64,000 nucleotides of DNA from Amphiscolops sp. MND2022 (taxonomy: Eukaryota). The position numbers were made by a program, and so were the translations under genes. Shown piece by piece: positions 26,717-30,712 of the stretch; position 1 is the first letter of the stretch; the number at the start of each line of letters is the position of its first letter. The stretch covers positions 15,812,001 to 15,876,000 of the forward strand of contig OZ076409.1 of assembly GCA_964187785.1 (NCBI GenBank), read 5' to 3'. The notes beneath the pieces were generated by a model. The model did not search any database and was not told the DNA's origin. It worked only from the letters and a program-made list of their open reading frames with translations.

Positions 26717-29700
26717 ATGGAAGAGGATTTCGATCTTCCCCCGCTCATTCCTGCTCCAGTTTCAGGGTTCCAAAGTGGTCATGATACCACTTATAATTGG
26801 TCCGAGGACGATATTATTGCCTCAGGTACGGAATGTAGACGGACAGAATCAGGTTGGTAAAAATCTTTCTGACTTCCATGGGTATTCGGACTATTATTTT
26901 GGTGATCAGCCTTTTTAGTCTTACCCGTAACTCTGACGCGTCTAACCAGATCTTGATTTTTCAGTAACTCAACCTGTAGTAGTTGCCAGCAATGCCGGTG
27001 GTCTTCTGGATGCTCCTCCTTCTGCCCAAACCGTTCAACTACCGTCTCTATCCTTCATTTTGCAGCCAGAGGCTTCTTCTTCCTGTACTGCAGGGATTGT
27101 AGAGCTTGTTACCGGCGGAGTTGATACGGAGTTGCCTGTTGAGGGACCTTCTGTTGTCGAGTCCGGTGCCATAGCGGTTTCTCCTGAGCTTGAGTGCTTC
27201 TCTGTTACTCAGTGTCAGCAACACCCTTCAGATGAGTCTCATGAAAGTGAGACTGATCCCCCCTCTCCAGAAAAAGGGACTGGTTAGTTCAGGCCTTTTC
27301 TTTTTCATATCAGTTCGTTGCTTTCACTGTAAGCACAACGTGAATGTTCATGTTGTAGCTTCAAAGAAAAATACTCCTCGACGGACTGTTGTGAATTTTG
27401 CACCGACACCCAAACGAGGCAAGAAAGTGTCGCTGCCTTCCTCTTCAGCGGCACCTATGGGAGGGTGGAGTAGTTAGTTTTTGTTTTCTTTGATCGCATT
27501 GGTCGTTTGTTTGTTCGTTGTTTTCTGGGTATGATCATCGTGTTATGTTTTGTCTTAGGTTTAGATGATCTACCAGGTGGCTCCGGAGGTATTTCGTTGA
27601 GTCCGCAGGATATGTTCCGACTGGGCCAGCAACTTGTGGACGAGATTGACAGTCGGGCTGCAAAGACTATTCAAAGCGGTATGTACTTGTATTGTATTTG
27701 GATCTTGTCGCTTTTTGGGTCTGTCGCATTTTCTTTGTTTGTCCTCCGTTTGTTGTGCGTTGTGTTATTGAGCGTTGATCTTTAACTTTTGCCACCATGG
27801 TGTAAAGTATGTTTTTATTTAGGTTTCGAAAAGTTGACTGAGAAGGTAGGCGGGAAGCTCAGTGGCCCTAAGACGAAAAAGTACAGCAGCCGAAACTATT
27901 TGCATAAGCGGATGCTGGGGCTGAACCCTCTGTTTCAAGATTTTGTTAGTGGCCCGAAGAATGGACGTGGAACTCATTTCTTTTGCAAAGTGTGCAAAAG
28001 AGATGTCGCCATGAAAGCTCATGGTTCTGGAGAGTTCGGGCGGCATTTTTATTCTCCTGGGCATTGGAACCGCGATGTGACGTACCGTGTACACATGGGG
28101 CTCCCGATCTACAATCGTCTAATGGAGCCAATGACTCTGTCTGCCGCTCAACTTGCGGATTTCCGTTCACGCCCATTTGAAGATCTCGGTGAGGGTTTTC
28201 CATTCCCTGAGGATTTGGTGCCAAAGCGGGCGCGCATTGAATCGAAGGTGCCTTACATGACTCTGGTGGCTTCTCTCTGTGACTTTCTTCGCAGTGGTGG
28301 CGATTTCAATCTGGTACGCCGGTTGTGGGGTTACTTCCGTGCAACGTTGGGTGAACGGCAGCCAGATTTCTCGTTCGAGTGGAGTCGATCTGAGACTGTT
28401 GTTAGTATAGTTGTTGGTATGGATAGGTGTGTTATTTGACGTACTTGCAACTTTTGTCTGTTTTTGATAAGAATAGAGATATATATGCGTGTCTGGGGGT
28501 GTACATTTGTATGACTTTTTGGCACCATTTTTCTTTATCGGGGGAGGGGCCTGGGTTTGTTGTATCTTTCACCGGTGAGTATAGTCTGTATTTGTTTCAG
28601 TCTTTCCTTTGCCAAGGAGTTGCTCCGCGGGCCCTCCGTTTGGTAGTGAGCAGAGTGACTGGTGAGTCAGAGTATTCCCTTCAGTTCGAGAAAGACAGTC
28701 AAGTGGAGTATTGTTTCATCGTTTATTGGGACGAAGACAAGCTGAAGAAAATTTGTGTGGACATACAATCACTGGATGAGGAATTGCCTAACGCTGAATT
28801 GAAACCCATCGCACGTTTATTTTTCGGGTTGGAGTCGCGACGGTTGCCTATGGTGGTTCGTGGTGCCAGTCCGTCTTTAATGCGAGTGTTGGGCGACAGA
28901 CGTGACGATTCTCGTCGTTTTGTTGTGTATCAGCGTTTTACAGAAGAGGTGTTCCTGGAATGCTTTCAGCGTGCTCACCAAGATGTTTTTGGCATGGTAG
29001 AGATTGTCACGTTGGTTGAGTTCATCGTTCAAAGGATGAAAAGCGCTGTGTATGAAGATTGGACTGAGGGTAAGCCCCTGCTCCGCAAGTGTATCCGTAA
29101 TGGATGCGTCAATTTTTGAGAACTTCGCGGACTTGACTGAGTTGTGGCATATAATACGACCGTATATCCGTTGTACTGGGCTACCCTATGCCAAAGAGAA
29201 AGCAGATCGTGTTAGTACATTCCCTTGTGTTCTTTTGTTATATCATATCGAGTGGTGTTGATTCCTGTTGTTGTGTCTTTTAGATGCGCGGTACTGAATT
29301 GTACGTCGTTTCCGATAAGATGATGATTCATCGGTTCGGGCTGCTACGTTTGGTTCTCGATATGTGTAAGTAACACTTTGATGGTTGTTTGAACGCGAAT
29401 CGTGTTTGTGAGTTCGTCTATGATTGATTTCCGTTTGCTTCTCGTTTGATTTTTCTGTTCTTTGTTTGTGATTCTGAGATGTTTCTGAGTTTGATAACTG
29501 CTGTATCATTATTATTTTCGTTTAGTTTACGTGAACTTCGTGAAGGCGCAGCAGAGACGTTATGACTACGATTTTCCTTGTTTTGGAGAAGTCTGCAACT
29601 TTGTGTATTGCTTGCTAATGAAGACTCGTGAAATCAATGCGTTGCCCAGTATCCATCAATGGGAAGAGTACATGAGTGTGGAGAGTGTGGAACGGTTTCC

Positions 29701-30712
29701 TTCCGTTTCTATAGATTGCTTCTTGAGCAGTTACGATTTGGGCAAAGATCTTGCGGCTGGGAAGACGAGCGAATCACGGGAGTTTCGGGTGAAGTGTAAG
29801 GAATTCTTGGATCAGCTTATTGTTATGGTCTTGCAGCACGGGAGCGTTACGTCCGGGGTTTCTCGGGGGCTGTCAAGTTTCTGCTCCGAAATCTTGTTTG
29901 AAGGTGACAATACTTGTGTTTTTACTTTGTTCGCTGATCTCTGCCGTTTGTACGTGGGTTGCGGAATGCTGCCTTTAGATGTGTCCAAAGCTGCTGTCGA
30001 AGAGTTCGCCAGTTATGTTGCTGAGAAACGGCGACAACACGTTGATAGTACCCGATCTGCTAGTGATATCACAAATATTATGGAGTTCTTATTGAATGGT
30101 TTTGCGTTTCAAGCCCGTCATCGCGTATTCCGTGTATTCAAACTGTGCTGTTTGGTGATTGAGCTCCCTCGTAGTGATCTTCCTGCTGTTGAGTTTGATT
30201 TATCCGGTAGCGCTCTCAGCCGGATAGATTTTGATCGAAGTCTTCGTTTGGTTTAGTCATATGTACTAAGTTCTGGATATTCCCATAAGGCCTTCTTTAC
30301 CAATCCTACGCTGGATGCAGTACGAGATGCGATCGCAACTTCTGGGGTGTTTTTTGTGGCGCCAAATTATAATTTGTGGGCCGGTGTTTGTGATCCTGCT
30401 TATGAGAAATATATTGCTGATGTGGGTGTTGTATACAAGCAGTTCTTGGATGGGCGACGCAAAGCTGGCGAGAGTCATTATGTTGAGTGCAATCGTGCTA
30501 ATCGTTTGTCACAAGTGGATCGCGGATCATGTTCGTCAAGGGAGGGAAGTCTCGTGAGCAGTGGATCTAAGACGCAAAAAGGAGAAACACTGCCAGTGGC
30601 GATTGCGAAAAAGGTGTCGCCGACTACCAGTAAGAGTTCTGGAAAAGGCAATGTCCAGAAAGGGAAGAATAAAACGAAGAGTGATCCCAGTATATTCCAT
30701 AAGATAAACTGA
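26717..30712 (+). pseudogene. Element B antisense spliced Zn-finger/hAT-like gene, about 1050 codons. Exons: 26717-26852, 26965-27282, 27359-27472, 27559-27678, 27823-28400, 28601-29210, 29284-29365, 29526-30712
   Basis: GT-AG, phase-consistent exons matching element A. Contains FFCKVC-x14-RHFYSPGH. Lesions: TGA at 29117-29119 with an ~11-nt deletion nearby, and TAG at 30254-30256. Confidence 0.8.

Follow-up and report, generated by a model that had tools for sequence, protein, structure and literature searches.

The DNA analysed here, a stretch of 64,000 nucleotides (nt) of Amphiscolops sp. MND2022 (contig OZ076409.1, positions 15,812,001–15,876,000; hereafter the window, to which all coordinates refer), contains three related long terminal repeat (LTR) elements of the Ty3/Gypsy type, labelled A, B and C. 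In each, the interval that separates integrase from the 3′ LTR holds an accessory gene, encoded on the opposite strand to pol. An original prediction, made from the letters of the window, had proposed that these antisense genes are homologous, and tblastx together with the Pfam domains of pol bears this out: A and B share 64%, 53% and 50% identity over exons 5, 6 and 8, and C and B share 32–43%. The copy in element B has the following layout.

26717–30712, plus strand: accessory gene of element B, antisense to pol, from ATG (26717) to TGA (30712)
26717–26825, or to 26852 with the conserved CAG/GTTGGT donor, plus strand: exon 1
26965–27282, plus strand: exon 2
27359–27472 (or to 27469), plus strand: exon 3
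27559–27678, plus strand: exon 4
27823–28400, plus strand: exon 5, 578 nt
28601–29210, plus strand: exon 6
29284–29365, plus strand: exon 7, 82 nt
29526–30712, plus strand: exon 8
29117–29119, plus strand: lesion private to B in exon 6, TGG to TGA, with an 11-nt deletion after 29127
30254–30256, plus strand: extra in-frame TAG in exon 8

The introns of B lie in phases 1, 1, 1, 1, 0, 0 and 1, all donors are GT, all acceptors are AG, and a pyrimidine tract precedes each acceptor. Apart from B's own lesions, the joined exons keep one frame from ATG to TGA and give a model protein of about 1,040 codons. The boundary first proposed for exon 6 does not stand, as this exon actually extends to 29210. 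Unlike B, sibling copies elsewhere in the genome (L002–L008 and L017) have TGG or CGG and retain the 11 bases in 8/8 cases. Elements A and C carry the gene in truncated and decayed form, respectively.

7924–11224, minus strand: accessory gene of element A, cut off at 7924
9533–10110, minus strand: exon 5 of A, 578 nt
8763–9383, minus strand: exon 6 of A, 621 nt
8566–8647, minus strand: exon 7 of A, 82 nt
7924–8426, minus strand: exon 8 of A, truncated
47543–51611, minus strand: accessory gene of element C, decayed
49898–50431, minus strand: exon 5 of C, donor GTTAGT conserved
49182–49804, minus strand: exon 6 of C, three frame changes and 2 stops
48999–49079, minus strand: exon 7 of C
47543–48842, minus strand: exon 8 of C, one frame change and 3 stops

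The exons of C were placed by tblastn with the exon peptides of L023, its closest intact relative among the sampled copies (70–85% identity). In A, the joined exons 5–8 are open up to the truncation, with the first stop at codon 609 and the last homologous codon at about 593, so that the claim of a stop-free copy holds, as does that of equal lengths for exons 5 and 7 in A and B (578 and 82 nt). Seven introns had been said to be shared between A and B; this stands for introns 1 and 4–7 and for both ends of exon 3, and is less certain for the donor of intron 2, for which A offers a candidate GTTCGT a few codons off the position in B.

To these copies we added 18 others fetched from the 1.07-Gb eukaryotic assembly that holds the window, and homologous boundaries were placed in 12 copies, A and B included. 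The compared copies are 38–68% identical in protein. Across 40 instances of introns 4–7 in the 12 copies, the donor is GT in 39/40 and the acceptor AG in 39/40, the two exceptions being mutations of single copies (AG to GG in L017, GT to AT in L015). Exon lengths are constant modulo 3: exon 5 measures 578 nt in 7/10 copies (the others differ by +6, +9 and +18), exon 6 measures 621 nt in 10/12 and exon 7 measures 82 nt in 12/12. Intron lengths are free, ranging from 66 to 200 nt; they are divisible by 3 in 12/40 instances, and reading through them meets a stop in 30/40. The joined exons 5–8 stay open for 824, 859, 865 and 1082 codons in four of nine diverged copies. Because splice sites and exon lengths are held fixed despite this divergence, the interruptions show the pattern of true spliceosomal introns selected for splicing. 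Separately, L015 and L016 at first appeared to lack intron 5, on account of a 501-amino-acid (aa) open reading frame (ORF), and this candidate was rejected: an intron of about 102 nt is present there and is open in frame.

The same gene is also found in a second clade that diverged deeply. An exon-5 profile run against a public protein set returned 452 unnamed relatives, one of which (P0091) has a contiguous ORF of 890 aa; eight relative clusters were looked up, none of which carries a protein name and all of which are ENA records. Within the window genome, 28 of the 51 scored second-clade matches are stop-free over 862–918 codons. All seven second-clade copies that were fetched lie tail-to-tail with a Gypsy integrase 36–47% identical to that of B, and five of the seven elements have an uninterrupted pol ORF of about 1,500 codons. 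As opposed to the 8 exons of the A/B/C clade, the second clade has 5, the last of them a single ORF of about 870–918 codons. Upstream of it are four short exons, conserved and with GT/AG bordering the four 5′ introns; the fourth exon is a homologue of exon 4 of B. Exactly introns 5, 6 and 7 are lacking in the clade, which reads straight through at those places. The second clade may have lost its 3′ introns or, alternatively, the A/B/C clade may have gained them; if a spliced mRNA were reverse transcribed and then recombined, the loss of the three 3′-most introns would result.

The interruptions could instead be read not as spliced introns but as gaps between pieces of a decayed ORF, or between pieces translated separately, in keeping with the in-frame openness of some introns (for example intron 5 in L015, L016 and L017) and with the two splice sites mutated in single copies. 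Such a reading is very unlikely, however, given that GT and AG are each kept in 39/40 instances among copies of such low identity, that exon lengths hold modulo 3 when intron lengths do not, that the joined frames remain open for 824–865 codons in diverged copies, and that the second clade is missing precisely these three segments.

Intron 1 behaves differently from the other introns. Most introns of the gene had been described as unalignable, which fails for a block that runs from the CAG/GTTGGT donor to the TTTTCAG/ acceptor and takes in 13 nt of exon 2.

26849–26977, plus strand: intron 1 block of element B
10976–11101: intron 1 block of element A

This block is 87–92% identical between B and A, L015, L016 and L019–L022, copies whose exons are only 50–68% identical to B at the protein level. 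No other stretch of the accessory gene is so well conserved, nor, outside pol, is any other part of the A/B-type elements; in C-type and second-clade copies the block was not detected. We note that it is present in L015–L017 and L019–L022, where the exons are saturated at synonymous sites. A stem is predicted within it (GGGTA..GGACTAT/ATAGTCTTACCC), but a structured RNA was rejected, with a compensatory change in just 1/33 pairs and covariation almost nil, and Rfam gave no match over 25400–31000 at E ≤ 1. The block might serve as a cis element, on one strand or the other.

The position of the gene is as conserved as its splice sites. In 18 of the 21 copies examined, which were best-scoring matches and include the second clade, a Gypsy integrase is encoded on the other strand, tail-to-tail with the gene, in line with the expectation that the gene belongs to LTR elements; the three unlinked copies (A, L021 and L026) are truncated or undetermined. 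Integrase and accessory gene also diverge together at depth, with identities of 36–47% and 25–32%, respectively, for the second clade, 58–68% and 37–49% for the C type, and 70–99% and 48–93% for the A/B type. Among close relatives the two histories disagree. The integrase of B is nearest to those of L019 and L016 (synonymous divergence, dS, 0.15 and 0.22), against both of which the accessory gene is saturated, whereas against L017 the order is reversed, with a dS of 0.64 for integrase and 0.39 for the accessory gene. Nucleotide identity jumps at position 30831, in the spacer between the stop codons of the accessory gene and integrase; in B the spacer after the accessory stop occupies 30712–30879. 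A comparison of the two histories therefore gives concordance at depth and discordance among close relatives, which argues for recombination between elements and not for independent insertion. Together with the jump at 30831, the conflict shows that the accessory gene is exchanged between pol backbones as a module.

These data bear on the idea that a hAT DNA transposon inserted independently into several Gypsy copies, giving a nested arrangement. The protein has the predicted fold of a hAT transposase (see below), and the genome is rich in genuine hAT elements: the best 150 of 2215 matches to PF05699 are all over the cut-off, and some of these ordinary elements have intact transposase ORFs of 597–697 aa with BED fingers. 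Nested insertion is nonetheless extremely improbable and largely refuted. The gene holds the same position and orientation relative to integrase in 18/21 copies, across clades whose integrases are 36–47% identical; its deep divergence tracks that of integrase; and in sequence it is dissimilar to the genuine hAT transposases of the genome. Because no inverted repeats bracket the gene, a nested DNA transposon is not the explanation: around the copies in B, L011 and L012 we found only short inverted matches of chance length, none bracketing the gene and none shared, as anticipated for a gene not bounded by terminal inverted repeats of its own.

The accessory gene is under purifying constraint. 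Ratios of non-synonymous to synonymous divergence (dN/dS) were computed by the Nei–Gojobori method (NG86) on exons 5, 6 and 8, and the five pairs with unsaturated dS give 0.23, 0.12, 0.09, 0.10 and 0.06. Nearly all other pairs are saturated, with a proportion of synonymous differences (pS) above 0.75 and of non-synonymous differences (pN) of 0.16–0.43. The integrases of the same elements give 0.04–0.17, so the accessory gene is about as constrained as integrase. It is also very abundant. The first-look matches number 7,008–11,116, that is, thousands of candidate copies inside the retroelement group, and in the exon-5 genome search the best 150 of 7008 first-look candidates all score E ≤ 7.4e-85. 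Low dN/dS, a fixed place, conserved splice sites and the lack of flanking inverted repeats all agree with the proposal that the accessory gene of this Gypsy lineage is old and selected, and we consider it very likely that the gene is real, selected and intron-bearing.

Element B itself provides a further argument, and its parts are as follows.

23464–35745, minus strand: element B, including target-site duplications (TSDs)
33625–35740, minus strand: 5′ LTR, with TGTCAC...GTAACA ends
23469–25584, minus strand: 3′ LTR
33607–33624: primer-binding site (PBS) TGGTGACAGGAGTCCTCA, directly after the 5′ LTR
23464–23468 and 35741–35745: TSD ACACC, 5 bp, perfect on both sides
30879–33624, minus strand: pol remnant, RNase H and integrase only

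The RNase H and integrase ORFs span 30879–34054 on the minus strand (Pfam RT_RNaseH, 4.3e-13; Integrase_H2C2, 4.6e-13; rve, 1.8e-12). The RNase H region directly adjoins the PBS, so B is a deletion derivative without gag, protease (PR) and reverse transcriptase (RT). Its LTRs, 2116 nt each, differ by 10 mismatches (99.5% identity). With the three genes gone, near-identical LTRs and a perfect TSD, B must have moved recently and in trans. The exon-5 ORF of B has 20 further near-identical (at least 96%) places in the genome among the matches listed.

A passive fragment of a host gene, recently transduced and with no role for the element, is hard to reconcile with these results. Retroelements do transduce host sequence, as stated in the available part of a review on plants (PMC7264820), and many copies of the accessory gene are broken. 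But the protein is retained between subfamilies that are saturated at synonymous sites, constraint equals that of integrase, and the gene is present in two deep clades, just as had been argued against recent capture. Moreover, B retains the gene despite its deletions and its recent movement, and the lesions that break it are absent from 8/8 siblings. This alternative is highly improbable and largely refuted.

The accessory protein has an acidic, serine-rich N terminus, basic patches and a C-x2-C-x16-H-x5-H finger, the CCHH positions of which do not vary among A, B and C and, in the second clade, are fixed or nearly so (at least 90%). Pfam gave no match for the four long accessory ORFs of B, and the hAT signatures PF05699 (Dimer_Tnp_hAT), zf-BED and DUF659/DUF4371 were not found in the family. 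An AlphaFold (AF2) model of a natural second-clade ORF, built from 23 aligned sequences, has a predicted local distance difference test (pLDDT) of 73.4 and is good over residues 220–775. In a Foldseek search of the PDB, the top ten matches are all Hermes (E 3e-4 to 2.3e-3, probability 1.00), the next lying in the noise at E 0.06, and VIA-align matches the model to Hermes with Z 11.7–12.7 over 380–400 residues at a root mean square deviation of 5.1–5.8 (next entry, Z 5.1). Residues 178–707 of the model align to Hermes 116–609, insertion domain included, so that the predicted model has both parts of the Hermes-type fold, an RNase H-like core and a large helical insertion domain. The sole match in the BFVD viral library at E ≤ 0.001 is a Pandoravirus hAT-domain protein, and the language-model neighbours of the protein are hAT-derived families (0.89–0.93).

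Upstream of the gene lies a candidate promoter.

26443–26486: two TGACGTCA palindromes of the cAMP response element (CRE) type, 230–275 nt upstream of the accessory ATG of B

The two sites form a 14-nt perfect inverted pair in B. The same TGACGTCA lies upstream of exon 1 in 11/14 intron-rich copies, and TTACGTCA lies about 105–125 nt upstream of the ATG in 7/7 intron-poor, second-clade copies. We presume that this stretch is the internal promoter of the accessory gene, and the conserved GT/AG sites, the start codon and the upstream CRE-like octamer together suggest a transcription unit of its own.

Taken as a whole, these data make it likely, in our view, that a very abundant Ty3/Gypsy group has this gene as a lineage-wide accessory, antisense to gag-pol. 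In this explanation the gene, its 3′ end facing the integrase stop codon, would be read opposite gag-pol from its internal, CRE-bearing promoter, and the host would splice the transcript. Introns in sense orientation are normally lost on retrotransposition, whereas antisense introns stay unspliced in the genomic RNA. Being antisense there, where the spliceosome cannot remove them, the introns of the accessory gene would be copied at each retrotransposition and so persist. The protein would enter the nucleus, bind DNA through its finger and transposase-like core, and help the element in trans, by stimulating transcription, lifting silencing or directing integration.

Several points weigh against this explanation. 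The examined copies are the best-scoring matches and a non-random sample, and both complete copies of the gene in the window, B and C, are broken. Exons 1–3 are poorly conserved and intron 1 of B has two possible donors; transcription, the true 5′ end and splicing are read from sequence comparison. In the 500 nt that follow the stop, 1/12 copies has an AATAAA or ATTAAA signal; the other 11/12 have none, and there the transcript would end inside the antisense integrase or use another signal. For the protein, Pfam gave no family for P0091 at E ≤ 1 and no relevant family for 23/23 members of the alignment at E ≤ 10, and a profile search of PDB sequences returned rows at chance level only. As controls we took five genuine hAT transposase ORFs from the same genome, all matching PF05699; hhalign between the accessory family and these five gave a probability of 0.07%. 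The DDE triad of hAT transposases comprises an aspartate on strand 1 in D-x-W, an aspartate after strand 4 in T-D-N-A-x-N and a glutamate in a C-terminal helix, and the D-x-W, T-D-N, R-W and S-E-R positions are invariant in the control alignment. In the accessory family, D-x-W and T-D-N-A-x-N were not seen at the places expected from the fold, and the aspartate positions hold S/Q and C/A, in a register set by secondary structure and not by residue-level superposition.

Because of the null hhalign result, the lack of Pfam matches and the residues at the aspartate positions, we call the protein hAT-transposase-like in its predicted fold, with no demonstrable membership by sequence, and regard it as probably non-catalytic. 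Were it still an active transposase, the element would have a second, DNA-level route to move or excise. The model does match the whole Hermes catalytic core with its insertion domain, and a glutamate (E616 of L012, in N-E-F-x-S) does not vary within the second clade and is shared by seven of the eight intron-rich copies shown, the eighth having a stop at the residue next to the equivalent position. Against this, neither the end of strand 1 nor the region after strand 4 has an invariant acidic residue in the family, hhalign found no counterpart of the control-hAT motifs C-x-x-H, R-W and S-E-R-x-F-S, each invariant or a consensus among the five controls, and the TSD of B is of the normal 5-bp retrotransposon type. 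We regard an active enzyme as quite unlikely.

What the protein would do instead can be outlined tentatively. The protein may be a helper in the nucleus that binds specific DNA sequences and works in trans, and not a cut-and-paste enzyme, a role for which we claim somewhat less than even confidence. A more specific version, which we consider doubtful, is that of a hAT-derived recognition factor, each deep allelic type of which binds its own element and activates its transcription, removes its silencing or steers its integration. The near-invariant intron 1 block and the LTR would then be candidate binding sites, and the types would have been kept apart for long, yet shuffled as cassettes onto near-identical pol backbones, as at the breakpoint at 30831, where integrase dS is 0.15–0.22 and accessory-gene dS is saturated. 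Anti-silencing accessory proteins exist in plant DNA transposons, and if the recognition-factor version were true, the accessory protein would be their counterpart in an animal retroelement.

Antisense accessory ORFs of Gypsy elements are an established kind of gene in plants. In the Tat/Retand lineage of Ty3/Gypsy, the sections available describe antisense ORFs (aORF-3R) in maize Grande (gene23), rice RIRE2 and Silene Retand, the proteins of which carry TRP28 or PMD domains, with Grande gene23 having its own promoter (PMC7264820, PMC11963269, PMC4408406). As far as those sections go, the likeness is close: an additional, family-conserved gene, antisense to gag-pol and placed between pol and the 3′ LTR, with a presumed promoter of its own and a presumed nuclear DNA-binding product, and retained by non-autonomous members. 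Unlike the plant genes, the Amphiscolops gene is not, as far as the data show, in a plant; it has neither TRP28 (PF04195) nor PMD, as there is no Pfam match whatever; and it has a predicted hAT-transposase-like fold and 4–7 conserved spliceosomal introns. In the portions at hand of two of the plant papers (PMC7264820 and PMC11963269), the word ‘intron’ is absent.

The predicted fold resembles that of Hermes, covering both its core and its helical insertion domain. In its N-terminal CCHH finger with a long spacer and in its language-model neighbours, the protein is like hAT-derived host proteins of the ZBED5/FAM200/GTF2IRD2/ZNF862 type, and like domesticated hAT proteins it has no evident catalytic motifs. 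It differs from hAT proteins in having no Pfam hAT, BED or DUF4371/DUF659 match, no profile–profile similarity and no inverted repeats, and, as opposed to hAT transposons and host genes, the gene has thousands of candidate copies, which sit inside a retroelement. The accessory gene also recalls the HBZ type, in which a retroelement encodes a regulatory protein on its minus strand, close to the 3′ LTR. HBZ-type proteins are small, of the bZIP type and transcribed from the 3′ LTR, whereas the accessory protein has about 1,000 residues, a transposase-like fold and a presumed internal promoter. Deltaretrovirus antisense genes of this type are cited in the available part of PMC11963269. Bdelloid rotifers provide a comparison among animal LTR elements: according to the excerpts of PMC5408684, family-specific extra ORFs (ORF3) downstream of pol are swapped as modules between retroelement lineages, as here, and are said to be expressed through spliced transcripts like env. 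The ORF3 types given there (env-like, GDSL, DEDDy, coiled-coil and transmembrane) are not transposase-like, unlike the accessory gene; in those excerpts, ‘intron’ is absent and ‘antisense’ is used for small RNAs only (PMC5408684).

In the full-text literature, a scope outside of which Repbase, Dfam and GyDB lie, we found no description of an antisense Gypsy gene with introns and a transposase fold. What is new here is the combination of a CCHH finger with a Hermes-like fold, the second clade without 3′ introns, the recombination of the gene as a module and the conserved CRE-like octamer. Class I and class II elements are usually treated apart, and here a retrotransposon group has long kept a transposase-shaped protein; the gene thus offers a workable system for studying how accessory proteins serve LTR elements. 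It is also a clear instance in nature of antisense orientation letting introns survive in a retroelement. Sister clades that differ by exactly the three 3′-most introns make loss mediated by RT and gain directly testable against each other. If loss is the true history, the missing introns of the second clade would be the footprint of a spliced antisense mRNA that was reverse transcribed and recombined back, and hence indirect proof of splicing in vivo. In practical terms, gene finders will call thousands of copies as host genes unless the repeat is recognised.

The remaining features of the elements complete the picture. Intact relatives with a 1,520-aa pol have the Gypsy order of PR, RT, RNase H and integrase; in L011, Pfam places gag-asp_proteas at residues 51–139 of this ORF, RVT_1 at 451–615, RT_RNaseH at 708–815, Integrase_H2C2 at 1023–1079 and rve at 1099–1191. 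This domain order, with the TG...CA LTRs, PBS and TSD (the latter set taken from element B), is that of Ty3/Gypsy (Metaviridae). Elements A and C and an additional ORF, ORFx, are arranged as follows.

39749–54760, plus strand: element C, with LTRs at 39749–41845 and 52675–54760
42473–46658, plus strand: pol pieces of C, split over five ORFs, with Pfam integrase and RNase H
12738–14736 (start approximate), plus strand: 3′ LTR of element A, ending ...GTAACA at 14736
25685–26167, minus strand (the pol strand): ORFx of B, between the 5′ end of the accessory gene and the 3′ LTR

The LTRs of C are 94.3% identical over 2097 nt, and its integrase is 68% identical to that of B. Element A consists of the 3′ part and 3′ LTR only, the LTR being 69–73% identical to that of B in inverted orientation. 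ORFx has homologues in A (11780–12484, plus strand), L015 (7211–7894), L016 (7422–8105) and L017 (641–1249), with dN/dS of 0.14–0.37, and no Pfam match. It has about 200–230 codons with conserved motifs (VIDISSDEE..., YYEEPETP... and GRG); a counterpart in C lies at 51999–52442 (plus strand), and at the corresponding position second-clade elements contain an ORF of 260 codons.

Within the 5′ LTR of B an ORF starts with M-T-T-R-S-Q-K-R-K (33625–34054, minus strand), and in C an ORF start, M-S-S-T-R-S-Q-K-R, likewise falls within the LTR repeat (41810–41845); both look like a gag N terminus. The gag-like ORF of B begins about 380 nt before the end of the LTR, and the deletion fuses it to RNase H. 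Past the truncated end of A, at 5858–6957, there are three tandem or near-tandem repeats of about 177–190 nt that are 62–88% identical. A 390-nt stretch at 57189–57579 is about 75% identical to parts of the LTRs of C (41317–41651 and 54175–54566) and is probably a fragment of a related LTR. At the far end of the window, 61590–63999 is G+C-rich (46–55%) with long minus-strand ORFs (559 aa, and 295 aa in one that leaves the window), which are possibly a host gene or another element.

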